Virus record (IMG/VR): IMGVR_UViG_2778260993_000018
Location: 1 to 16,902 of that record
Length of the DNA stretch: 16,902 bases
From: a virus
Taxonomy: Duplodnaviria > Heunggongvirae > Uroviricota > Caudoviricetes
Reading direction: 5' to 3' (one strand)
Below the pieces are notes generated by a model. The model saw nothing but the letters and a program-made list of their open reading frames with translations, did no database searches and was not told the DNA's origin. Below are positions 6,905-16,902 of this stretch, one piece after another (position 1 is the first letter of the stretch; every line of letters starts with the position of its first letter). Both the position numbers and the translations under genes were made by a program.

Positions 6905-6933
6905 ACAATAGCCAAAGCGTTTGATTGTGTCAA
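6905..6933 (-). promoter_or_regulatory. Candidate leftward early promoter (PL-like)
   Basis: On the minus strand: TTGACA (6933..6928), 17-nt spacer, TATTGT (6910..6905), about 20 nt upstream of the Shine-Dalgarno of the dual-HTH gene. The operator-like 12-mer CAATCGCTATAG (6931-6942) overlaps the -35. Confidence 0.45.
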
Positions 6934-7021
6934 TCGCTATAGCTATGTATTTTGGGCAGCAAAGAACAGATTATGAGAGAAATGAGACGATACGTAGGGA
7001 GTTGAGATACAGGAAAGTAGA

Positions 7022-7042
7022 GCAGCTGCGCAATACAGCTGC
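7022..7042 (-). terminator. Hairpin downstream of cI (GCAGCTG-n7-CAGCTGC); weak terminator candidate
   Basis: Perfect 7-bp stem about 15 nt after the cI stop. The following minus-strand sequence is only moderately U-rich. Confidence 0.3.
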
Positions 7043-7055
7043 CGGTGATGTTGAC

Positions 7056-7760
7056 TTATCCGACCCTGTTATACTGGATTGACTGATGAATGAGAACTTT
7101 CCCCATTATGAATAGATGTTCTTCAGTTGATTCACTTATAAACCATTCCTTGTAGGCCGGATTGTCTGATATAACAGCAAGTTGCATCCCTTGCATTTGC
7201 AGGCGTTTGATATGGAAAGTGTGCCCAAAAATAAAAATATAGATACCGTCAGTTTCAAAATTTCTGACGGATACGTCGACAAACACCTGATCTCCTGCAC
7301 ACAGAGTAGGAGCCATGCTGTCGCCATCAACTGTTATCATCTTTATGATATTTGCTGGCCTGCTACAGAACAGACGTCTTGCGGCGTCATGTGAAAATTC
7401 TATAGCATGGACCGTTTCTGCAAAATCTGAAACAAGGAATGTTCCTGGTCCCGCGCTGGCAGCGATATCCAGGACTTCCACACGAAAAATATCCTTATCA
7501 TTTTCCAGCGGGGAATATGATACCTGTGGTGTCGGATTGCAGGATGTGCTTTCTTCTGGGGTCATAGGACCAACACCGTACGATAGCCACTCGGGGCGCA
7601 CGTTCAGGGTATTGGCTATCTCCACAACTTTCCTGGAGCCTGTGGCACCATTAACCAGTTTATTTACGCTCGATTGAGCCATGCCAACCTCTCTGGCCAG
7701 TTTTCCCTGCGAGTATCCGCGGATAGTCATAGCTAACTGTAGCCTGTCTGAAAAGCTCAT
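7056..7760 (-). CDS. cI: CI-like prophage repressor (N-terminal HTH, C-terminal LexA/S24 autopeptidase domain), 234 aa
   Basis: HTH (..RGYSQGKLAREVGMAQSSVNKLVNG..) and S24 signature (..VDGDSMAPTL.. with downstream ..IMGKVL..). ATG at 7760 preceded by AAGGAGG with a 5-nt spacer; the upstream 25 codons of the ORF-track call are probably untranslated. Divergent from cro. Confidence 0.85.
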   Translation of the reverse strand: MSFSDRLQLAMTIRGYSQGKLAREVGMAQSSVNKLVNGATGSRKVVEIANTLNVRPEWLSYGVGPMTPEESTSCNPTPQVSYSPLENDKDIFRVEVLDIAASAGPGTFLVSDFAETVHAIEFSHDAARRLFCSRPANIIKMITVDGDSMAPTLCAGDQVFVDVSVRNFETDGIYIFIFGHTFHIKRLQMQGMQLAVISDNPAYKEWFISESTEEHLFIMGKVLIHQSIQYNRVG

Positions 7761-7786
7761 AAGTCCTCCTTTTTCTGCCCTTTTAG

Positions 7787-7858
7787 TATATCGCCTTAGC
7801 GATATATACACAAACCGCTTTTCCGTACATTGCAATCGCTTTAATCAATCGCTATAGT
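7787..7858. promoter_or_regulatory. cI-cro intergenic switch region: candidate operators with rightward and leftward promoters
   Basis: 20-bp palindrome TATATCGC-CTTA-GCGATATA (7787-7806). Direct repeat CAATCGCT at 7833-7840 and 7846-7853. Candidate rightward promoter TTGCAA (7830-7835), 17-nt spacer, TATAGT (7853-7858). Candidate leftward maintenance promoter on the minus strand: TTGTGT (7813..7808) and TATACT (7790..7785). Confidence 0.5.
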
Positions 7859-7883
7859 GAATGAAATCAGGTTGGAGGTCGAT

Positions 7884-8147
7884 ATGAAAAATGAAGGTAT
7901 AGCCAAGGCTGTAGATATTGCGGGAAGCCAGATTGCTCTGGCTAGGCGTTGTGGTCGCGCGCAGTCAACAATTTGCGACTGGCTGAATGGGAAGAAAAAA
8001 ATTTCTCCTGAATTTGTTCCGTCTCTGGTTAAGGCGGTCGATGGGAAAGTCCAGGCGTATGAATTTCGTCCTGATCTACCGGAGCTTTTCCCACACCCAA
8101 GTTTAGCGCACACAGAAGATGGAGTGTGCGAAGGAGATAAACAGTGA
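7884..8147 (+). CDS. cro: Cro-like small helix-turn-helix regulator, 87 aa
   Basis: GGAGG Shine-Dalgarno 5 nt before the ATG at 7884. HTH-like segment ..SQIALARRCGRAQSTICDWLNG... Divergent from cI. The ORF-track start at 7857 is less likely. Confidence 0.7.
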   Translation: MKNEGIAKAVDIAGSQIALARRCGRAQSTICDWLNGKKKISPEFVPSLVKAVDGKVQAYEFRPDLPELFPHPSLAHTEDGVCEGDKQ

Positions 8148-8851
8148 ATACAACAATTTTTACCGATAAAGCATCCATGACCAGTATTGAGATAGCTGAG
8201 CTGGTGGGAAGCAGACCAGATAGTGTTAAGAGAACTATTGAAACACTGGCTAAAAAGGGAATCATCCAATTTCCACAGACTGTGGAAATTGAGAATAAAC
8301 AATCACTTGGGCCTCGCCGATTTTCTAGCGCGTATGTATTCGAAGGTGAACGAGGCAAACGCGACAGCATTATTGTTGTCGCACAGCTTTGCCCTGAATT
8401 CACTGCCCGCCTGGTAGATCGCTGGCGTGAACTGGAAGAACAAATCCGTAAACCGATGAGCCAGATTGAAATGGTTGCTGCAATGGCACTTGAAGCCGTT
8501 CGTCAACAAAGACGTCTTGAGCAGGTGGAAGAGAAAGTCACCCACGTTACTGAAACCGTCGAGAAAATCAAAAGAGGCACCATACGCGATGGTTATGCAG
8601 GCTACCGTCAGCTGGTGGCGAAAACGGGTATGTCAGATGCGAAATGCCGCAATCTGGTGAACGCATATCAGATCCCTACCGACACCCATGAGTTCATGAC
8701 GCCGGATGGATTGTTGTCGCGTCGCGCGATTGTTGCAGTAGAACCTTTCATGGCTGCTTTTCATCGCATGATGAGTGAAGCAGAGCCACGAGGTGCACGC
8801 TGGTATCACCCGAAAATGGGGTTGTTCCAGGCGCTGGGCTGGCAGGTGTAA
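8144..8851 (+). CDS. Phage regulatory / antirepressor-like protein (Rha or ORF6N-like N-terminal DNA-binding domain), 235 aa
   Basis: GTG start overlapping the cro stop (GTGA), with AAGGAG 7 nt upstream. N-terminus ..MTSIEIAELVGSRPDSVKRTIETLAKKG.. resembles phage Rha/antirepressor N-domains (recalled). Confidence 0.6.
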   Translation: MNTTIFTDKASMTSIEIAELVGSRPDSVKRTIETLAKKGIIQFPQTVEIENKQSLGPRRFSSAYVFEGERGKRDSIIVVAQLCPEFTARLVDRWRELEEQIRKPMSQIEMVAAMALEAVRQQRRLEQVEEKVTHVTETVEKIKRGTIRDGYAGYRQLVAKTGMSDAKCRNLVNAYQIPTDTHEFMTPDGLLSRRAIVAVEPFMAAFHRMMSEAEPRGARWYHPKMGLFQALGWQV

Positions 8852-8853
8852 TT

Positions 8854-9687
8854 ATGCTCACAGGTAACACATGCAAGTACTCAATCGCTGGTTCCGTGAT
8901 GGAAGGGGGCGTCGCGTCCACATTATACGCTGGGAGCCTGAAACACAGCGGGTTATTTACCTGCGTGATGGTTATCCGCATGAATGCTTCAGCCCGCTGT
9001 GGTTGTTTCGTCGTGATTTTGTTGAGTGTGAAGCGCCACCAGCATATTGATTCTGCAATTCCGGGACGTTACACTGTTCTGGCACCTTATAAAGCGGGTG
9101 CCGGGGGTCGCAGCCCGGAATTGCATACGGCGATATACGACGCGCCAGCGTCTTTTTTATCGTCCGCGCTCACGCACGCCAGAATTATGGTGGGCTGGGC
9201 AGGGGAGCCGAAAGGCTCGCCGGTTTCCGTATGCGCCGGTACTGCGAACCCTGTTCAGTCTGCCACCAGTGAGTTTCGCAGCTCCGGTGGTGGAAGTTAT
9301 CCATTGCATACGGAGGCTGCCATCATGGCTACAGACCCAACTTCCCCATACCTGAAAATCGAAGTCGTCAACGGCAAGGCCGTTATTTTCTCCCTGCATG
9401 TTGCCTGCCATTTCAAGCGCATGCACCAGAACATCGTCGACAAAATCGAGTATCTGAACTGCTCGCGCGAATTTTTTACCCGCAATTTCATACCGGGTAC
9501 TTATCACATCTATGGTGACTCCCTGCGTGGTTATTACATCACCTTTGATGGCCTGATGATGCTTCAGCTTGGGTTAAGTCTACGCACAATGCGGTACTAC
9601 GAGAGCTGCATTGAAGCATTCCATGAGGCAGGGAACAGCCTGAATCTTACCGCTTTCCGCCGTAATCAGTGGGAGGCGCGTCCATGA
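8854..9687 (+). CDS. Rha-family (Phage_pRha-like) regulatory protein; start uncertain (Rha-like domain begins at ATG 9325)
   Basis: C-terminal half (..KIEVVNGKAVIFSLHVACHFKRMHQNIVDKIEYL..FIPGTYHIYGDSLRGYYITFDGLMMLQLG..) fits the Rha pattern. GGAGG with 8-nt spacer precedes the ATG at 9325. The upstream in-frame 157 codons contain a promoter-like box and a terminator hairpin and may not all be coding. Ends ..EARP with an ATGA overlap to the next ORF. Confidence 0.55.
   Translation: MLTGNTCKYSIAGSVMEGGVASTLYAGSLKHSGLFTCVMVIRMNASARCGCFVVILLSVKRHQHIDSAIPGRYTVLAPYKAGAGGRSPELHTAIYDAPASFLSSALTHARIMVGWAGEPKGSPVSVCAGTANPVQSATSEFRSSGGGSYPLHTEAAIMATDPTSPYLKIEVVNGKAVIFSLHVACHFKRMHQNIVDKIEYLNCSREFFTRNFIPGTYHIYGDSLRGYYITFDGLMMLQLGLSLRTMRYYESCIEAFHEAGNSLNLTAFRRNQWEARP
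9047..9158 (+). ncRNA. Candidate small RNA / leader unit A: promoter box, 5' stem-loop and intrinsic terminator (RNA about 9082-9158)
   Basis: TTGATT (9047-9052), 17-nt spacer, TACACT (9070-9075). 5' stem CTGGCACC/GGTGCCGG (9079-9104). Terminator GACGC-gcca-GCGTC followed by six T (9139-9158). Paralogous to unit B. Confidence 0.35.
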
Positions 9688-9878
9688 TTAGTTACGAAAT
9701 TATTATTTCCACAACTGAATACAGAAACGATGTATCAGTTCGCACGGATGTATCTGTCTGGCACCGTCGCTATAAATCCAGAAAAACAGCGGAACTGAAA
9801 GCGGCAGAGATGTGTGAAACCATCTCAATGAAAGGTAGCCCGGTTAAATACGTAACTACGGCGGAGGTGCGTCCATGA
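9684..9878 (+). CDS. Hypothetical small protein, 64 aa
   Basis: ATG at 9684 within the junction GGAGGCGCGTCCATGA (ATGA overlap with the upstream stop). Ends ..AEVRP and is followed by the same junction. AT-rich relative to its neighbours. Confidence 0.45.
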   Translation: MISYEIIISTTEYRNDVSVRTDVSVWHRRYKSRKTAELKAAEMCETISMKGSPVKYVTTAEVRP

Positions 9879-10723
9879 TCCGCTACCTGAATATTGATTC
9901 TGCCATTCCGGGACGTTACACTGTTCTGGCACCTTATAAAGCGGGTGCTGGGATTGGCGTCCTGAAATTTACAGAAGAGCATAACCGCGCTCATGCGGTT
10001 TTTTCGTGTCATGAGCATTGCTACGCCCAAATTATGGTGGGGCGTGCAGGGGCATCGCAAGATGCGCCGGGTTCTTCTGTGACCGGTTACGCCAACCCTG
10101 TACGTCTCACCACCTCTGTGATTGGCGTCCCATGTGGTGAGTGTTTTAAACTCACAGAAGGGGCTGTCATCATGACTACTCTCCCAACCATCGCTCAACC
10201 TGAACTTTGCATTGTTGCTGGCAAAGTGGTTACTTCTTCTCTGTCTGTTGCTAGTTATTTCCGCAAACAACACAAAAATGTCATTCAAAAAATTGCGTCT
10301 CTTGAATGCTCTGCCGAATTTACTGAGCTGAATTTTCAGCCCAGTGATTACACTGACGTATCAGGCCGCAAACTTCCCTGCTACCAAATCACCCGCGACG
10401 GCTTTGCGTTTCTTGCTATGGGCTTCACTGGTAAACGTGCTACCCGGTTCAAAGAGGCATACATCAATGCCTTTAACCAGATGGAGAAGAGTTTATCAGG
10501 TGCCGATGCGTCTGATATGTCAGCTGTCGCACGAAACGCCAGAGGCGTATACCTGCATTTGCGTGAAATCCATCAAATCTGGACAAGCCAGCTTTATCCA
10601 ATGCTTAAGGCTGTTGAATCTCCGCTGGCCAGCAAACTGTACGACCGTGTAGGTGATGCTGTTTTTGGTGCTGCACTTGTTGATTCCTGGCTGAATGGTT
10701 CTGACAAGGAGGTGCGTCCATGA
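9875..10723 (+). CDS. Rha-family (Phage_pRha-like) regulatory protein, 282 aa; Rha-like domain begins near ATG 10172
   Basis: ..PELCIVAGKVVTSSLSVASYFRKQHKNVIQKIASLE..NFQPSDYTDVSGRKLPCYQITRDGFAFLAMGFTGKRATRFKEAYINAFNQME.. fits the Rha pattern. Start at 9875 uses the conserved junction GGAGGTGCGTCCATGA. N-terminal 99 codons are paralogous to the leader of the previous gene. Confidence 0.6.
   Translation: MIRYLNIDSAIPGRYTVLAPYKAGAGIGVLKFTEEHNRAHAVFSCHEHCYAQIMVGRAGASQDAPGSSVTGYANPVRLTTSVIGVPCGECFKLTEGAVIMTTLPTIAQPELCIVAGKVVTSSLSVASYFRKQHKNVIQKIASLECSAEFTELNFQPSDYTDVSGRKLPCYQITRDGFAFLAMGFTGKRATRFKEAYINAFNQMEKSLSGADASDMSAVARNARGVYLHLREIHQIWTSQLYPMLKAVESPLASKLYDRVGDAVFGAALVDSWLNGSDKEVRP
9894..10004 (+). 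ncRNA. Candidate small RNA / leader unit B: promoter box, 5' stem-loop and intrinsic terminator (RNA about 9929-10004)
   Basis: TTGATT (9894-9899), 17-nt spacer, TACACT (9917-9922). 5' stem preserved through a C-to-T change giving a G-U wobble. Terminator AACCGC-gctcat-GCGGTT with a T-run (9983-10004) at the same relative position as in unit A, with a different stem sequence. Confidence 0.35.
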
Positions 10724-10944
10724 TCCGCCACATCGTTAATTTCCTGTATCACCGATACAACCATTGCCCCCGTGTGGGGCAGTGGTTCACCACCAGCAAC
10801 GGACACGTTCTGCGGGTTTGCCTGGTCAATACAGAAAGCCAGAAGGTTGTCTGCCAGGTTCAGGGACGTACTCATACCCTGAGTTATCCGCTGGTGGCGT
10901 TTCAGTCCGGAAAAATGTTTAAGCGTCTGGGAGGTGCCGTATGA
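10720..10944 (+). CDS. Hypothetical small protein, 74 aa
   Basis: Starts at the conserved junction GGAGGTGCGTCCATGA (10708-10723). Stop overlaps the ATG of the replication initiator through a related junction GGAGGTGCCGTATGA. Confidence 0.45.
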   Translation: MIRHIVNFLYHRYNHCPRVGQWFTTSNGHVLRVCLVNTESQKVVCQVQGRTHTLSYPLVAFQSGKMFKRLGGAV

Positions 10945-11882
10945 GTAGCAAAATCCTAGGTAATGTCTGGGATGCATGTGCAGCATATGGCATCAAAGGT
11001 GCAAAACTGATGATTATGGCGCGCCTGGCGGATTATTCGAATGATGACGGGGTGTGCTACCCAGGTGTTGAAACCATATGTCGACAGCTTGGATTGGGAG
11101 AAAGTACAGTCAGAACGGCAATCTCCGAACTGGAGGCTGATGGCTGGCTGACGCGTCAGTCACGCCGCAAAGGTAACCGTAATACGTCCAATCTTTATCA
11201 TCTGAATGCTGATCGGCTTGAGCTGCTTGCCAGAACAGAGCGGGATAAGGTTGCAGAACTGAAACAGCAGCGCAGACTTTCAGTATTACGTGACCCTTCA
11301 GATTCTGAACCTTCAAAATCTGAACCTTCAAAATCTGAACCGTCAGAATCTGTATGTTCAGGCGTGTTTGACCCTTCAGATTCTGGCAAAAATACGCGTT
11401 TGACCCTTCAGAATCTGACCCCAGATCCACAAGGTTTAAAACATGAACCACCAGTAAATTCAAAACATGAACCGCAAGATATTGGCGCATCCGCTGACGC
11501 GTCTGCACCAGCGCGTTCTGCCAGACAGGAATATTCACCGGAATTTGAACAGGCCTGGCAGGAATATCCCAAACGTGCTGGTGGTAATTCCAAGTCAGCA
11601 GCCTTCAAAGCCTGGAAAGCCCGAATCAGGGAAGGTGTGACACCAGAAACCATGCTCAACGGTGTGAAACGCTATGCTGCCTGGGTGCGTGTCTCAGGAA
11701 ATACCGGCACCCAGTTCGTGAAGCAGGCGTCGACGTTCTTTGGACCCGATCGTCACTTCGAAGATTTCTGGCAACAGCCAGCAGCTCCCGGAGGTGGGCG
11801 ACAGCGACAGGTCGATGTCCTGGCTGGCCTGGGAGCCATGTCTGACAAATTCGGTAAATCCAGTGACAAATTGACATTCTGA
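10941..11882 (+). CDS. Phage replication initiation protein (lambda O-like replisome organiser; N-terminal HTH, internal iteron-encoded linker), 313 aa
   Basis: N-terminal helix-turn-helix-like region (..YPGVETICRQLGLGESTVRTAISELEADGWLTRQ..). Internal tandem DNA repeats encode a low-complexity DPSDSEPSKSEPSKSEPSES linker. Immediately followed by DnaC-like and DnaB-like genes. Confidence 0.75.
   Translation: MSSKILGNVWDACAAYGIKGAKLMIMARLADYSNDDGVCYPGVETICRQLGLGESTVRTAISELEADGWLTRQSRRKGNRNTSNLYHLNADRLELLARTERDKVAELKQQRRLSVLRDPSDSEPSKSEPSKSEPSESVCSGVFDPSDSGKNTRLTLQNLTPDPQGLKHEPPVNSKHEPQDIGASADASAPARSARQEYSPEFEQAWQEYPKRAGGNSKSAAFKAWKARIREGVTPETMLNGVKRYAAWVRVSGNTGTQFVKQASTFFGPDRHFEDFWQQPAAPGGGRQRQVDVLAGLGAMSDKFGKSSDKLTF
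11291..11417. repeat. Iteron array (candidate phage origin of replication) inside the initiator gene
   Basis: Six copies of a motif with palindromic core TCAGAWTCTGA: four in tandem at 15-bp spacing (about 11292-11352), two more at about 11369-11385 and 11400-11417. Followed by an A-rich stretch with a duplicated AAAACATGAACC (11441-11480). Confidence 0.7.
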
Positions 11883-11892
11883 GGTGACAGCG

Positions 11893-12771
11893 ATGATGAC
11901 GTTTAACCTGCGTGAACAACAAACAAGACTACAGGCGCGGATGGATGAGTTACGGGCAGAGATTGCATTTGCTCAGAAGGGCGAAAAACCATGGCCTTAT
12001 CGTTCCTGCTGGATGCGTGAAGGGCGCGGGTGTTGCGAAAAACATGGCGAATACCACACACATATTCTGGTGTGGAGGGATCGTAATGGCGAGGACAGAG
12101 AAAAAATTTCATGCTGCCCTGACTGCTTGATAGCTGAGGCCAACGATTTGACCATGGAGCTGTCGTCCCTCAAGGCGGAAGAACTGACTGATAACGCCGG
12201 AATTGCTCTGCGTTTTCGGGACTGCGAGTTTGATAATTATCTGGAGGTTAATCCTGACGCAGCCAGAAATCTTGCGGCCTGTCGCCGCTATGCGGAGAAC
12301 TGGCCAGATATGCTGGAGAACGGTACCAGTCTTGTTATGACCGGCAGTTGCGGTACCGGGAAAAATCATCTGGCGGTATCAATGGCAAAACACATCATCC
12401 GTAACTATCTGGCCAGTGTGGAGATCACCGACGTGATGCGCCTTACCCGGGCTGTGAAAAACTGCTGGCGGAATGACAGTGAAAAAACAGCGGATGACGT
12501 CATTGAGCATTATGCGTCACTGGATTTGCTGATTGTCGACGAAGTCGGCGTTCAGTTTGGCAGTGCGGCTGAAATGGCCATTTTGCAGGAAATTATCAAT
12601 GCCCGGTATGAGGGTATTTTGCCAACTATCCTGATCAGCAACCTTTCACCGGAAGAATTGTGGGCGTTCATCAGTCCCCGGATTGCCGACAGGATCACCG
12701 ATGGCGGGCGCAACTGGTTGTCGTTTAACTGGCCCAGCTACCGTTCTCGTATCGGAGGTGTTGCCGCATGA
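11893..12771 (+). CDS. DnaC-like helicase loader (IstB-like AAA+ ATPase) with N-terminal Cys/His cluster
   Basis: Walker A ..GSCGTGKNHLA.. and Walker B ..LLIVDEVG... N-terminal CCEKHGEYHTH..CCPDC cluster. ATG at 11893 with GAGG 8 nt upstream; the ORF-track GTG at 11884 is the alternative. Confidence 0.85.
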   Translation: MMTFNLREQQTRLQARMDELRAEIAFAQKGEKPWPYRSCWMREGRGCCEKHGEYHTHILVWRDRNGEDREKISCCPDCLIAEANDLTMELSSLKAEELTDNAGIALRFRDCEFDNYLEVNPDAARNLAACRRYAENWPDMLENGTSLVMTGSCGTGKNHLAVSMAKHIIRNYLASVEITDVMRLTRAVKNCWRNDSEKTADDVIEHYASLDLLIVDEVGVQFGSAAEMAILQEIINARYEGILPTILISNLSPEELWAFISPRIADRITDGGRNWLSFNWPSYRSRIGGVAA

Positions 12772-14168
12772 CCAGCCAGAACACCCCGGCATGGCGTAAC
12801 GATGACCTGGAAGGCGCTGTCATCGGTGCGTTTTTTCTGCGTGGGGCCGATCCGGAAGTGATGGATATTCTGGCCACACTTCCGGCGGATGTATTTTTTG
12901 TGCGTCAGTACCGGGATATTTACGCGGGGATTTGCAGACAGGCTCGCATATCCGGCGTCATTGACCCCGTACTGCTGTGCAATGAGATGCCGGAACTTGC
13001 CCCGGTGATTACCGACACCGGACGCAAAACCTGGGTGAAGTCTTCACTGGAGCACTATGTCGCAGCGTTGCGGCGCAATGCCGCACTGCGCGATGCAGAA
13101 AAAACACTGACTGAAGCATTACAGAATTTACGTGATGCGTATACCTGTGAAGCAGCCGAGGATGCCCTGAAGGATGCGCAGAACATGATGGCCTCACTGT
13201 CGACCGGAAAGGGCGTCATTCAGCCGGTTCACATTGATGATGTCCTTCCGGAAGTGGTCGACCGTGTTGAATGCCGCAATCAGGGACTGGAGAAATCCAG
13301 GGCGCTGATGACCGGTATTGATGAACTGGACGCAAAAACGGGCGGTATGGAGCCCGGAGACCTGGTATTCATTGCCGCCCGTCCTTCGATGGGGAAAACC
13401 GAACTTGCGCTGGACATCATCGACAAGGTGACTGAGCAGGGGCATGGCGTGCTTCTGTTCACCATGGAGATGGCGAACATCCAGATTGGTGAACGTATGG
13501 TGTCTGCTGCAGGGGGAATGCCGGTATCCCGTCTTAAGTCTGTTGCCCGTTTTGAAGACGAAGACTGGGCACGTTTCTCACAGGGCGTGGGACGAATGAC
13601 GGGGCGTAATATCTGGATGGTGGACCAGGCAAACCTGACCATTGATGAGATATGTGCAACCACGAAGCACCACCGGATGAAACACCCGGAAACGGCGCTG
13701 GTGGTGGTCGATTACCTCGGCCTGATTAAAACCCGCAGCACGGGGCGTCACGACCTTGCGGTGGGGGAAATCTCAAAGGGACTTAAAAGCCTGGCAAAAT
13801 CCGGCGGTTTTCCGCTGATTGCTCTGAGCCAGCTCTCCCGCGGCGTGGAATCCAGACCCAATAAACGCCCAATGAACTCGGACCTGAAAAACTCCGGGGA
13901 AATCGAGGCGGATGCCGACATCATTCTGATGCTTTACAGGGATGAGGTATACAACCCGGAAACTCAGGCCAGAGGCATAGCAGAAATCAACATCACGAAA
14001 CAGCGTAATGGCACGCTCGGGACCATTTACCGGCGTTTTCATAACGGACATTTTCTGCCTGTGGACCAGGAGAGTGCCCGGGTTCTTTCCACACCCATGA
14101 CGCCGGGCAATCCGCGCAGATACAGCAATAACCGCATGTCGGGCAGTAAAACGGAGCGTTTATTTTGA
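12768..14168 (+). CDS. DnaB-family replicative DNA helicase, 466 aa
   Basis: RecA-like core with Walker A ..ARPSMGKTELALDI.., Walker B ..LVVVDYLGLI.. and ..ALSQLSRGVESR... Start overlaps the loader stop (ATGA). Confidence 0.9.
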   Translation: MTSQNTPAWRNDDLEGAVIGAFFLRGADPEVMDILATLPADVFFVRQYRDIYAGICRQARISGVIDPVLLCNEMPELAPVITDTGRKTWVKSSLEHYVAALRRNAALRDAEKTLTEALQNLRDAYTCEAAEDALKDAQNMMASLSTGKGVIQPVHIDDVLPEVVDRVECRNQGLEKSRALMTGIDELDAKTGGMEPGDLVFIAARPSMGKTELALDIIDKVTEQGHGVLLFTMEMANIQIGERMVSAAGGMPVSRLKSVARFEDEDWARFSQGVGRMTGRNIWMVDQANLTIDEICATTKHHRMKHPETALVVVDYLGLIKTRSTGRHDLAVGEISKGLKSLAKSGGFPLIALSQLSRGVESRPNKRPMNSDLKNSGEIEADADIILMLYRDEVYNPETQARGIAEINITKQRNGTLGTIYRRFHNGHFLPVDQESARVLSTPMTPGNPRRYSNNRMSGSKTERLF

Positions 14169-14422
14169 ACAACAGAACAATCACTGTTTCACCGGAACAA
14201 CTTCGTCGGCAGGCGCAGGAGATGCTTCGTTGTGCTGAACAGATGGAAAAAACGAGCGTGAAAAAAGATACGCTCCGCAAGCAGCTTACTCCGGCGCTTC
14301 GTGATCTGCTGCAGGCAAAACACCGCACACAAAAGGCGGTGGATGAGCTGGTGGATTGCGTGGCGGAATTGGAAGGACAGGTAAGCCAGTTTGAAACGCT
14401 GGTGAAGGAGTTTACTGCGTGA
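14165..14422 (+). CDS. Hypothetical small coiled-coil protein, 85 aa
   Basis: TTG start overlapping the dnaB-like stop, with ACGGAG upstream. Charged helical sequence, no recognisable domain. Start uncertain. Confidence 0.4.
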   Translation: MNNRTITVSPEQLRRQAQEMLRCAEQMEKTSVKKDTLRKQLTPALRDLLQAKHRTQKAVDELVDCVAELEGQVSQFETLVKEFTA

Positions 14423-14468
14423 TGGCTGAATTTTTTTCTCCTGCGTTCATGCAATACCGTTCGCTGAG

Positions 14469-15464
14469 GTGACCGTGAGAGCACTGCTGACCCCTGAAAT
14501 TGCCCCGCGTATGGGGATCGTCTTGTTCAGACCCGGTTCAGAGCTGATGCCCCTGTTTATGCAGGGGCGTGTCCTGCTGGAGCCTGAGCCGGAACGTTAT
14601 TCATCTTTTGCCAGTGGTGCCGTTCCGGCAGCATCACAACCGCTGGCGGATGATCCTGCCGTTCGGGCCGTGTTCCGCCATGAGGCGGTGATCCGTCGTG
14701 CTGGTGGCGTGGAATGCCTTGAGAGCTGGTTACTTCGTGAAAAAGGCTGTCAGTGGCCTCATTCCGACTGGCACAGCGAGAACATGACCACAATGCGGCA
14801 CGCGCCAGGCGCAATCCGTCTGTGCTGGCACTGTGACAATCTTCTCCGTGACCAGTTCACGGAACGGCTGGAAGCAATGGCAACGGATAACTGTGCCCGC
14901 TGGGTGTTGTCTGTTGTGCGCCGTGATCTTGGTTTTGATGACAGTCACGTTGTGACAATGCCGGAACTGTGCTGGTGGCTGATTCGTAAGGACCTGGCGG
15001 ATGCCTTACCGGAAAGTGCAGCCCGTAAGGCACTGAGATTACCGAAGCCTGTTGTGCCGTCTGTCACCCGGGAAAGTGACCTTGTGCCTTCGGTTCCTGC
15101 CACCAGCATCATCCAGGATAAGGCGAAAAAGGTGCTGGCGCTGAAAGTGGATCCGGAGTCGCCGGAGTCTTTTATGTTACGCCCAAAACGTCGCCGCTGG
15201 GTTAATGAAAAGTACACGCGCTGGGTTAAGACGCAGCCGTGTGCATGTTGTGGTAAGCCAGCCGACGATCCGCATCACCTGATTGGCCATGGTCAGGGTG
15301 GAATGGGTACTAAAGCGCATGACCTTTTTGTGTTGCCTTTGTGCAGAAAACACCATGACGAACTGCATGCGGATACCGTGGCATTTGAAGAGAAGTATGG
15401 TTCCCAACTGGAGCTGATATTTCGTTTTATCGATCGCGCGCTGGCGATTGGTGTGCTGTCCTGA
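14469..15464 (+). CDS. DUF968-like phage protein with C-terminal Cys/His (HNH-like) motif, 331 aa
   Basis: C-terminus ..QPCACCGKPADDPHHLIGHGQGGMGTKAHDLFVLPLCRKHHDELH.. matches my recollection of the DUF968 family seen in lambdoid nin-region equivalents. GTG start at 14469 or 14475, with GAGG upstream. Confidence 0.65.
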   Translation: MTVRALLTPEIAPRMGIVLFRPGSELMPLFMQGRVLLEPEPERYSSFASGAVPAASQPLADDPAVRAVFRHEAVIRRAGGVECLESWLLREKGCQWPHSDWHSENMTTMRHAPGAIRLCWHCDNLLRDQFTERLEAMATDNCARWVLSVVRRDLGFDDSHVVTMPELCWWLIRKDLADALPESAARKALRLPKPVVPSVTRESDLVPSVPATSIIQDKAKKVLALKVDPESPESFMLRPKRRRWVNEKYTRWVKTQPCACCGKPADDPHHLIGHGQGGMGTKAHDLFVLPLCRKHHDELHADTVAFEEKYGSQLELIFRFIDRALAIGVLS

Positions 15465-15481
15465 TTTTGTGGAGAAAGTTG

Positions 15482-15862
15482 ATGCGTGATATTCAGATGG
15501 TTCTTGAACGCTGGGGGGCATGGGCTGCAAGTGGTAACACCGGGGTGGACTATTCTCCGATCGCTGCCGGATTCAAAGGACTTTTACCATCTGCCACTAA
15601 ACCACGTCCGGCCTGCTGCGATGATGACGGACTTATCATTGAAAACTGTCTTGCTCGTCTGAAGCAGAAAAAACCTGAGGAGTATTCGCTTCTCATTGCT
15701 CATTATTTGTTGCGAATATCAAAAAGACAGATAGCCAGGACGAGAAAGAAAAGCGAAAAAGCAATACGAATTGAGATGCAGATAGCCGAAGGGTTTATTG
15801 ACGGATGTTTGTCTGTGCTGGGGGTAAGACTGGAGATGGACGACTGGCTGCTAAAAAAGTAA
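15482..15862 (+). CDS. Q: Late-gene antiterminator Q (Phage_antitermQ type), 126 aa
   Basis: N-terminus MRDIQMVLERWGAWAA.. and ..AAGFKGLL..CCDDDGLII..ARLK.. match the Q-antiterminator family (recalled). GGAG 7 nt before the ATG at 15482. Followed by a short region ending in a strong intrinsic terminator. Confidence 0.8.
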   Translation: MRDIQMVLERWGAWAASGNTGVDYSPIAAGFKGLLPSATKPRPACCDDDGLIIENCLARLKQKKPEEYSLLIAHYLLRISKRQIARTRKKSEKAIRIEMQIAEGFIDGCLSVLGVRLEMDDWLLKK

Positions 15863-15930
15863 AAAATGATTAGTGCGGTCCGCAAAAAGTATGTCAGTAT
15901 GTTAAGAGTGGTTACTTTGCCACACAGCTT
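15863..15930 (+). promoter_or_regulatory. Candidate late promoter / Q-utilisation region (PR'-like)
   Basis: Position between Q and the terminator is as in lambdoid phages. -10-like hexamers TATGTC (15890-15895) and TATGTT (15898-15903) are present, but no convincing -35 was found. Confidence 0.3.
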
Positions 15931-15956
15931 AAACCCGCCGCGAGCGGGTTTTTTTA
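15931..15956 (+). terminator. Intrinsic terminator (tR'-like) downstream of Q
   Basis: AAACCCGC-cgcga-GCGGGTTT stem (5 GC pairs plus 3 A-U) followed by seven T. Confidence 0.75.
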
Positions 15957-16077
15957 TGGCTGAAATCTGTCCAGTACAGTAAACGCGCTGGCGGCGGTGC
16001 ATACCGTTCTTTCAGCTTGCTGGCTTTTTCGACAAGAGTTATTGGTGTGTCACGTTAACCGGAAAAGGGGAAAAGAC

Positions 16078-16275
16078 ATGCTGAAACAGCAGGATATGAC
16101 AGAAACCGCCAGAGTGGTGTTTAATGAATTAAGCGTCACCGAACCGGCGACAGTCGGGGAGATTGCACAGAATACGTACCTTTCACGCGAACGCTGTCAG
16201 TTAATACTGACCCAGCTTGTTATGGCGGGTCTGGCAGACTATCAGTTCGGTTGTTACAGACGCCTTCAGTCCTGA
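16078..16275 (+). CDS. Hypothetical small protein, 65 aa, possible winged-helix DNA-binding fold
   Basis: ATG at 16078 preceded by AAGGGG with a 7-nt spacer; the longer ORF-track form (15997) starts inside the terminator region. Stop lies within a terminator hairpin. Confidence 0.5.
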   Translation: MLKQQDMTETARVVFNELSVTEPATVGEIAQNTYLSRERCQLILTQLVMAGLADYQFGCYRRLQS

Positions 16276-16286
16276 AGGCTTTTTTA
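16262..16286 (+). terminator. Intrinsic terminator after the 65-aa gene
   Basis: GCCTTCAG-tc-CTGAAGGC inverted repeat (more likely a 6-bp stem with a 6-nt loop) followed by TTTTTTATTT. Confidence 0.65.
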
Positions 16287-16425
16287 TTTGTGGTAAATGG
16301 GCGGCTGGTGGGTGTTAGGGGCACTCACCAGCCATCTGCTCATGCGTCCGGATCACAAGCAAACCTCAGGCCCACTGCTTTGCGCAAAAGCAGAATGAGC
16401 CTATCAGAGAAGTGCTTATTGGTCT

Positions 16426-16902
16426 ATGGCTAATACTGTAAAAATATCCAGTTGTGAGCTAATCAACGCTGATTGCCTGGAATTTATCCAGACCTTACCG
16501 GAAAACTCTGTCGATCTGATAGTCACAGACCCGCCATACTTTAAAGTGAAGCCTGAGGGCTGGGATAACCAGTGGAAGGGCGACGATGATTACCTGAAGT
16601 GGCTGGACCAGTGTCTTGCGCAGTTCTGGCGGGTGCTGAAACCTGCCGGAAGTCTTTACCTGTTCTGTGGCCATCGCCTGGCATCTGACATTGAAATCAT
16701 GATGCGTGAACGCTTCAGTGTGCTGAACCATATTATCTGGGCGAAGCCGTCCGGACGCTGGAACGGGTGCAACAAGGAAAGCCTGCGGGCGTATTTCCCC
16801 GCCACAGAGCGCATTCTGTTCGCGGAACATTATCAGGGGCCGTATCGTCCGAAAGATGCCGGGTATGAGGCGAAGGGCAGGGCACTGAAACAGCATGTGA
16901 TG
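16426..16902 (+). CDS. DNA methyltransferase (N6-adenine/N4-cytosine, beta-class with N-terminal DPPY motif), 5' partial, runs off the window
   Basis: Not in the ORF track because there is no stop within the window. ATG at 16426, then ..LIVTDPPYFK.. (catalytic motif IV), continuing in frame for 159 codons to the window end. No clear Shine-Dalgarno. Confidence 0.8.
   Translation, partial: MANTVKISSCELINADCLEFIQTLPENSVDLIVTDPPYFKVKPEGWDNQWKGDDDYLKWLDQCLAQFWRVLKPAGSLYLFCGHRLASDIEIMMRERFSVLNHIIWAKPSGRWNGCNKESLRAYFPATERILFAEHYQGPYRPKDAGYEAKGRALKQHVM

Follow-up and report, generated by a model that had tools for sequence, protein, structure and literature searches.

In a 16,902-nt stretch of Caudoviricetes DNA (IMG/VR record IMGVR_UViG_2778260993_000018, positions 1 to 16,902; the whole of it is called the window here), which is the early region of a lambdoid prophage resembling Shiga toxin (Stx) phages, a short junction sequence, J, recurs at successive gene boundaries between a Roi-like gene and the O-like replication initiator. 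We consider it likely that J is the 3' end of each cassette in this interval, built as a translational hand-over site and having in addition a role in exchange. A ribosome terminating at such a site would restart on the next cassette, and stacked insertions would leave no untranslated gap before the essential O, DnaC and DnaB genes; rare short-homology crossovers or unequal exchanges within J, a step that the comparisons below show in part, would add, drop and re-order cassettes. Turnover would take place at J because it is the only sequence common to otherwise unrelated cassettes.

The motif GGAGG(T/C)GCGTCCATGA is found at 9672, 9863 and 10708 of the window. With up to three mismatches allowed, it has three matches against 0.12 expected, and none of 200 shuffles reached three; the patterns GGAGG-N7-ATGA and GGAGGTG-N2-9-ATGA occur four times each, against 0.13 and 0.07 expected. 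A first-pass annotation of the window had placed copies at 9672-9687 (one mismatch), 9863-9878 and 10708-10723, and we recovered all three there, the last two exact over 16 nt. Their identity extends to 21 bp, as had also been proposed (9863-9883 = 10708-10728), and this 21-nt repeat and a 44-nt repeat in the modules described below are the only two exact direct repeats of at least 16 nt within 8800-11000. The three upstream open reading frames (ORFs) do end in E(A/V)RP (..WEARP, ..AEVRP, ..KEVRP), with the ATG of the next gene, inside the motif, overlapping the TGA. Other parts of that annotation needed correction. A related motif exists at the initiator start, but at 10930-10944, one base off the proposed 10929-10943, and the degenerate copy assigned to about 8898-8925 (GGAAGGGGGCGTCGCGTCCACATT, 8901-8924) lies within the DUF4222 coding sequence (CDS) and is not within three mismatches of the motif. 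The proposed genes 8854-9687 and 9875-10723 are maximal ORFs, in which the Rha domains start at ATG 9325 and ATG 10172.

J begins with an extended Shine-Dalgarno (SD) sequence, GGAGGTG, which is complementary to the 16S rRNA 3' end over all seven bases; a 5-nt spacer follows, and then an ATGA whose start codon overlaps the TGA of the preceding ORF. GGAGG thus stands 7 nt ahead of the ATG and within the upstream ORF, a functional SD spacing, and an ATGA with an in-frame upstream stop and a downstream ATG is present at J1, J2, J3 and J' as well as between the DnaC-like and DnaB genes (Table 1). The predicted energies of the duplex with the anti-SD are -11.8 kcal/mol for J1, -15.0 for J2 and -16.9 for J3; the ribosome-binding sites (RBSs) of the two Rha genes themselves are weaker, at -9.5 and -9.8 kcal/mol. 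At J1, the 3' end of rhaS, the short Rha gene, is predicted to form a 10-bp hairpin in which the SD is fully paired (P unpaired 0.00); the partners of the SD in this hairpin (9631-9681) are codons for ..AFRR.. of that gene. Strict coupling is usual for ATGA gene pairs (found for 13 of 14 tested; Huber et al. 2019, PMC6728339), and in the homologous Gifsy-1 isrK locus AUGA coupling of orf45 and anrP has been shown by mutagenesis (PMC4825925). From the anatomy of J, we infer that translation would be coupled across it.

We then compared the interval from the Roi-like gene to gp74, the gene ahead of the initiator, in about 130 related prophage loci overall. One set was anchored on J (the exact 16-mer in 93 IMG/VR stretches, of which 8 are unrelated chance contexts and the rest related prophage loci), and a second, anchored on gp74 and not biased for the motif, held 80 loci with 49 distinct intervals. 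The cassettes are of four types, namely isrK-C4-Rha antirepressor modules, gp64 (present or absent among relatives), a 76-aa gene seen in relatives, and gp74, the constant last cassette ahead of the initiator. Every cassette in the interval starts with ATGAT and ends with GGAGG..C..CC, so that any cassette order regenerates the same junction. We counted 19 architectures in the J-anchored set and 20 among the 49 distinct intervals, with one to three Rha modules and with or without gp64, the DUF4222 gene, a 158-aa gene or the 76-aa gene. GGAGG-N7-ATGA was present at every boundary after rhaS, rhaL (the long Rha gene) or gp64 in both sets, and eight of the nine combinations of three upstream with three downstream partners were observed. 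Across 493 context pairs with non-homologous partners on both sides, identity was 0.43-1.0 within J and 0.94 at +1, and in the flanks it averaged roughly 0.2 with scattered single-position peaks. The shared element is 17 nt long, GGAGG..C..C.ATGAT, and its invariant positions are the SD and the ATGA. The gp64-J segment is carried by 1,022 of 5,426 complete E. coli genomes, and for the interval from Roi to O in E. coli and Shigella there are matches in more than 1,600 complete genomes. A scan for the 21-mer in one genome per species gave only three chance matches, in GC-rich metagenome-assembled genomes, and so was uninformative about taxonomy. The 76-aa gene (MCNNHYS...QEVHP), a fourth J-ended cassette unrelated to the others, was seen between rhaS and gp74 in three loci (L118, L153 and L168, at about 3770-4000); it ends in QEVHP-stop within its downstream junction GGAGGTACATCCATGA, and its upstream junction, GGAGGCGCGCCATGTGTAA, is short of one base.

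That four unrelated proteins end in E-V/A-R/H-P, with some of the variation at third codon positions (GTG/GTA/GTT, CGT/CGC), could mean that the C-terminal peptide E-(V/A)-R-P is itself the conserved element, for example a degradation or interaction tag. This is highly improbable, as non-synonymous variants are common (V/A/G/E, R/H, P/L/Q; for example GGAGGTGCACCTATGA, which reads EVHL, GGAGGTGCATCAATGA and EAHP) and the invariant positions are those of the SD and the ATGA. Moreover, J' has the SD nucleotides of J read in a different frame (..LGGAV-stop), and in relatives the boundary from gp74 to O has the form GGGAGGTG-N4-(A/G)TGA ahead of several different O alleles. The use of GGAGGTG in another frame at this boundary points to a constraint on nucleotides, not on peptide, and with the non-synonymous variants it led us to reject EVRP as the conserved entity.

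All four configurations of two upstream and two downstream partners, gp64-J-gp74, gp64-J-module, rhaL-J-gp74 and rhaL-J-module, occur with the identical 16-mer, a four-gamete pattern in which the flanks are the same wherever a partner is shared. As gp64 has no relationship to rhaL, and as nothing but TCCGC is common to the downstream partners past J, the site of exchange must be in J, unless identical joints recurred by chance. Comparison of the window with one relative (L049) showed identical local flanks and a clean 845-bp indel that is bounded by the 21-nt repeat and has J3 as its right boundary. This relative was rejected as near-isogenic with the window, its near-identity being local and the remainder mosaic at 92-97% identity, and for this reason the event is called an indel here, either an insertion or a deletion. 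The best left-hand relatives stop matching the window at 9883 and the best right-hand ones begin at 9890; all 1,022 E. coli genomes with gp64-J stop matching at 9886, and the window's own joint of gp64 to the module was found in none of the 5,426 complete E. coli genomes. Its inferred parents have 24 nt in common, GGAGGTGCGTCCATGATCCGCTAC, and it is within these that the window appears to join a rhaS-gp64-J lineage to a J-module(rhaL)-J-gp74 lineage. These comparisons, which are genomic rather than experimental, give good support to exchange within the junction.

Precise cassette boundaries with a repeated short site are also what a dedicated site-specific recombination system acting on integron-like cassettes would leave. 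We regard such a system as extremely improbable, because J has no dyad symmetry or hairpin-forming inverted repeat, no recombinase is associated with the cassettes (the integrase at 1-1287 is the prophage's own), and the IS110 element in the window is unrelated to J and missing from relatives. With neither a structured site nor a cassette-linked recombinase, this candidate was rejected.

Several observations weigh against the combined role that we propose for J. The identity island measures 17 nt in general and 21-24 nt in specific pairs, which is no more than the minimal efficient pairing segment published for Red-beta (23-27 bp) or RecA (31-34 bp; PMC3945230), the 44-nt module repeat is a better homology patch than J, and no recombinase gene was identified among the left-operon ORFs scanned. 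The whole region is finely mosaic, so that many architectures may derive from recombination in flanking homologous genes; they could have spread via flanking conserved genes or the 44-nt repeat after few founding events at J. For a relative with diverged homologous flanks (L045), the alignment contained indels and the crossover was not placed. Selection by the exact 16-mer inflates the apparent invariance of J in the J-anchored set, and Salmonella 118970_sal3 and Stx2a_1447 have a diverged junction, AAGGGGGCGCAAATGA, making the exact motif lineage-specific. With respect to coupling, structure prediction leaves the SD partly open at J2 (P unpaired 0.47) and at J3 (0.63), so independent initiation there is possible. 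In 118970_sal3 and Stx2a_1447 (L184 3490-3510; L185 3486-3506), the antirepressor ends in SE(V/A)RGRK-stop within AAGGGGGCGCAAATGATCCGG, a diverged class of J, and the MIRN.. ORF that follows this junction in 118970_sal3 is unannotated.

Some of these points would fit a passive J, that is, an inherited RBS and stop/start overlap at which selection removes gene-disrupting illegitimate joins and from which architectures spread via flanking genes. An identity island below the published pairing minimum, longer patches close by (the 44-nt repeat of the modules, and gp74, O and Roi as conserved genes), J variants that mostly travel with the allele of the upstream gene, and fine mosaicism everywhere in the region all agree with this explanation, which we nevertheless think rather unlikely. 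It leaves a 12-nt tail common to four unrelated upstream genes, and an ATGAT common to three unrelated downstream partners, to be accounted for, together with the occurrence of all four upstream-by-downstream combinations with identical junction and flanks and an 845-bp indel bounded exactly by the 21-nt repeat. Illegitimate joins made independently of one another would not bring back the same 16-17-mer.

Our preferred explanation, a hand-over site with a role in exchange, overlaps in part with the proposal of the first-pass annotation, which saw in J a standardised linker and a homology patch for the mosaic gain and loss of small genes. Among relatives, gene content between junction copies indeed varies while the junction is retained (about 20 architectures), and the motif is neither restricted to one genome nor set in unvarying flanks. 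J recurs at boundaries as a linker should, but locally: the four cassette types that it serves belong to a single interval in one group of prophages, and it is no general standard. Exchange at J finds support, but the length of J is at or below minimal pairing and the 44-nt repeat would serve better; content does vary at J, but the main unit gained or lost is an 845-bp RNA-controlled antirepressor module and not a small gene. On balance, the observation is partly confirmed and its interpretation partly supported.

The modules that are shuffled at J have a common plan. Tandem pairs of isrK and C4 RNA genes, two in the window, are each followed by a Rha-family gene, and all four RNA genes score above the Rfam gathering scores (45 for C4, 50 for isrK). 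The Rha proteins match Phage_pRha (E 5e-32 and 2e-6) and PHROG 'transcriptional regulator / anti-repressor' families; they are putative antirepressors by family membership only. In an alignment of seven copies, from the window and Stx phages, the module 5' end is nearly invariant (ATATTGATTCTGCAATTCCGGGACGTTACACTG, promoter-like), and the loop and the single-stranded segment of C4 covary, in a three-way pattern, with target sites that form two sets; one set overlaps the Rha RBS. The isrK terminator was seen both in this alignment and in a terminator scan. A consensus promoter scan did not flag TTGATT-17-TACACT (8/12 consensus match), which was assigned as a promoter because of its position relative to the isrK 5' end and its conservation. 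Antisense specificity differs between cassettes 1 and 2. In cassette 1, the complement between C4 and leader is 9 nt long and perfect. Among 135 module instances (loci L001-L183), we distinguished 22 (a', b') specificity pairs, all of which have perfect complements in an 8-10-nt a2 and a 7-nt b2, and none of the 15 loci with two or three modules has two of the same specificity. By their sequence features, the cassettes are antisense-controlled antirepressor modules of the P1 immI or Gifsy-1 isrK kind. The joints of J to a module resemble a gp74 5' end (ATGATCCGCCAC) fused to a DUF4222 3' end (GCGCCACCAGCATATTGA) at a CGCCAC microhomology; gp74 and the DUF4222 protein (8871-9050) have weak similarity (25% over 44 aa, pairwise E 1e-5).

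As J lies in an operon under antisense RNAs that act on ribosome-binding sites, and as 8 nt of the module 1 isrK are complementary to J1, J might be a regulatory target of the C4 or IsrK RNAs, or else of a translational repressor protein. This is very unlikely. C4 has a 9-nt perfect complement to its own leader and only 4-6 nt to any J, and on these k-mer complements we rejected J as a C4/IsrK target; the 8-nt match of the first isrK falls within the terminator stem and concerns the J1 variant only. Duplex energies against J were within 1.7 sd of shuffles, in a test that also missed the known cognate leaders, and across the 22 C4 specificity types J shows no covariation.

A stop-free frame runs through the RNA part of these modules. 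The maximal ORFs 8854-9687 and 9875-10723 traverse the isrK and C4 RNA genes, and in all 41 unique regions between promoter and Rha ATG, which are 275, 278 or 281 nt long, no stop codon interrupts the frame that leads into this ATG; indels are solely in multiples of 3. In every context, a start codon lies 21 nt ahead of TTGATT: the ATG of J, the ATG of another ATGA overlap after the 158-aa gene, an ATG 108 nt past Roi or, in the DUF4222 context, a GTG. In DUF4222 contexts (L025, L031, L040 and L078), the frame is open back into Roi over 0.9-1.3 kb that contain other genes in other frames. Translations of the isrK-C4 region (8854-9324 and 9875-10171) match Pfam Phage_ASH (PF10554; E 1e-13); RefSeq labels such ORFs 'ash family protein', and PHROG 995 and 821 include the N-terminal extension. 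However, variability, at 0.568, 0.587 and 0.577 bits for the first, second and third codon position, has no codon periodicity, and what lies behind the 'Ash' family is therefore probably conserved RNA or a conduit ORF, not a protein that folds. This agrees with the published remark that orf45, which is fused to anrP in S. dysenteriae, is conserved as nucleotides and not as amino acids (PMC4825925). Upstream of the conserved AATTATGG start, a second frame is also open in 13 of 33 sequences, which makes that part weaker evidence.

On one reading of this frame, ribosomes handed over at J2 would translate through the RNA module into Rha; if they do cross, J would be part of an unbroken translation chain from Roi to DnaB. 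A wider and more tentative reading, possible although we doubt it, is that J belongs to a 'continuous translation' design by which cassettes can be stacked. One standard junction would then double as ribosome hand-over site and recombination joint, and heterospecific antirepressor modules could be stacked ahead of the replication genes without polarity. Junctions of the J2 type would feed ribosomes into a stop-free frame free of amino-acid constraint, which would thread the module promoter, small RNA (sRNA), terminator and antisense RNA to Rha, and upstream (lytic) transcripts would gain a C4-independent route to antirepressor synthesis. If true, an RBS acting as linker would make the linker hypothesis of 1978 directly testable in a defined 17-nt element.

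Table 1 Features of the window, with J copies first.
Feature	Position	Strand	Remarks
J1	9672..9687	+	GGAGGCGCGTCCATGA, 1 mismatch; short Rha gene stop (..WEARP-stop) overlaps gp64 start (MISYE..)
J2	9863..9883	+	GGAGGTGCGTCCATGATCCGC; gp64 stop (..AEVRP-stop) overlaps ATG opening stop-free frame through module 2 into Rha
J3	10708..10728	+	21-mer of J2, GGAGGTGCGTCCATGATCCGC; long Rha gene stop (..KEVRP-stop) overlaps gp74 start (MIRHIV..)
J'	10930..10944	+	GGAGGTGCCGTATGA; gp74 stop / replication initiator start
DnaC-like/DnaB junction	12754..12771	+	GGAGGTGTTGCCGCATGA; J-style extended SD and ATGA
Cassette 1	9047..9687	+	Promoter-like sequence, isrK-like sRNA, C4 RNA, target sites before RBS, short Rha CDS
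Cassette 1 promoter-like TTGATT-17-TACACT	9047-9075	+	
Cassette 1 isrK-like sRNA	9082-9158	+	Rfam 57.0 bits; terminator 9139-9152
Cassette 1 C4 antisense RNA	9183-9270	+	Rfam 80.4 bits
Short Rha CDS (rhaS), 120 aa	9325-9687	+	Phage_pRha / phrog_995
gp64, 64 aa, function unknown	9684..9878	+	phrog_7046, E 2e-48; J on both sides; Pfam search without match
Cassette 2, 845 bp	9884..10728	+	isrK-C4-long Rha, then J3; unit missing from L049
Cassette 2 promoter-like	9894-9922	+	
Cassette 2 isrK-like sRNA	9929-10005	+	Rfam 57.4 bits
Cassette 2 C4 RNA	10030-10117	+	Rfam 80.3 bits
Long Rha CDS (rhaL), 183 aa	10172-10723	+	Phage_pRha, E 5e-32
gp74, 74 aa, function unknown	10720..10944	+	phrog_1153, E 1e-43
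44-nt exact direct repeat	9058..9101 = 9905-9948	+	Module 5' end / isrK 5' part
Integrase (prophage tyrosine integrase)	1-1287	minus	Only integrase present
IS110-family element	~2386-3799	minus (transposase)	Transposase 2657-3676; interrupts left operon
S24-type CI repressor	7056-7835	minus	
Roi-like gene	8144-8851		
DUF4222 gene	8871-9050		Pfam E 1.7e-15
O-like replication initiator	10941-11882		Internal iterons

The remainder of the window has the gene order of a lambdoid early region (Table 1). Past the CI repressor follow a Cro/YdaS-like gene, the Roi-like gene, the cassette region and the O-like initiator, and beyond this a DnaC-like loader, DnaB, a DUF968/HNH gene and a Q antiterminator. 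Relatives align to the window over 1-2385 and from 3800 onward and are without the IS110-family element. Inside the initiator gene, at 11285-11480, two families of direct repeats (four of about 23 nt and three of 20 nt) occur together with overlapping inverted repeats; this is the expected iteron-type origin.

Phage mosaics have been explained by two models, targeted exchange at short boundary sequences and random illegitimate joins followed by selection, which the rarity of clean boundary sequences has made difficult to tell apart. This widespread locus provides a compact natural test case, with a 17-nt J that has its own functional reason for conservation, four unrelated cassettes that all end in J, and all four recombinant configurations. 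As the shuffled cassettes are antirepressor modules of many antisense specificities in Stx-type prophages, their turnover may affect induction cross-talk of Shiga-toxin phages. The locus also poses an annotation problem, in that RNA genes are crossed by ORFs that carry the name 'Ash family protein' or, when long, 'antirepressor'.

Among known systems, J resembles ATGA termination-reinitiation pairs in its 4-nt overlap, its SD within the upstream ORF and its optimal spacing. In Gifsy-1, coupling occurs at the antirepressor 5' end (orf45 to anrP), whereas J stands at the antirepressor 3' end and at small-gene boundaries, and the window's equivalent of orf45 is fused in frame to Rha, unlike the AUGA joint of Gifsy-1. 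The cassettes are like P1/P7 immI (c4 - icd - ant) and Gifsy-1 isrK-orf45-anrP in having a C4-family RNA upstream of an antirepressor-type gene and repeated target sites that overlap the RBS. P1 and P7 have heterospecific antisense specificities with compensatory target changes, as is the case among the cassettes. Unlike immI and the Gifsy-1 locus, the modules described here lie in the early-right operon of a lambdoid prophage, are stacked one to three deep and are delimited by J. As with morons and integron cassettes, they are discrete units between conserved genes whose presence varies among relatives; however, morons typically have their own promoter and terminator and no shared junction, whereas J cassettes are fused translationally, and integron cassettes have attC hairpins and an integrase, whereas J cassettes are without an evident dedicated recombinase.

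The conserved-boundary or 'linker' model of lambdoid mosaicism goes back to Susskind & Botstein 1978 and was taken up for HK620 by Clark et al. 2001 (both as summarised in PMC3233612). In that outline, as at J, a short conserved sequence at gene boundaries flanks non-homologous interchangeable modules, the content varying and the boundary being kept. The boundary sequences of HK620 are said to behave in this manner, a likeness to J by description and not by sequence. J differs from the lambdoid boundary sequences in being 17-24 nt long, with four cassette types in a single interval, and in being itself an RBS with a stop/start overlap, which gives its conservation an independent functional reason. 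Our literature searches, which were not exhaustive, found no description of this specific junction. Judged from nucleotide sequence, J appears to be both an ATGA termination-reinitiation junction and a lambdoid boundary sequence, and it illustrates cleanly an idea that is already known rather than a mechanism that is new.

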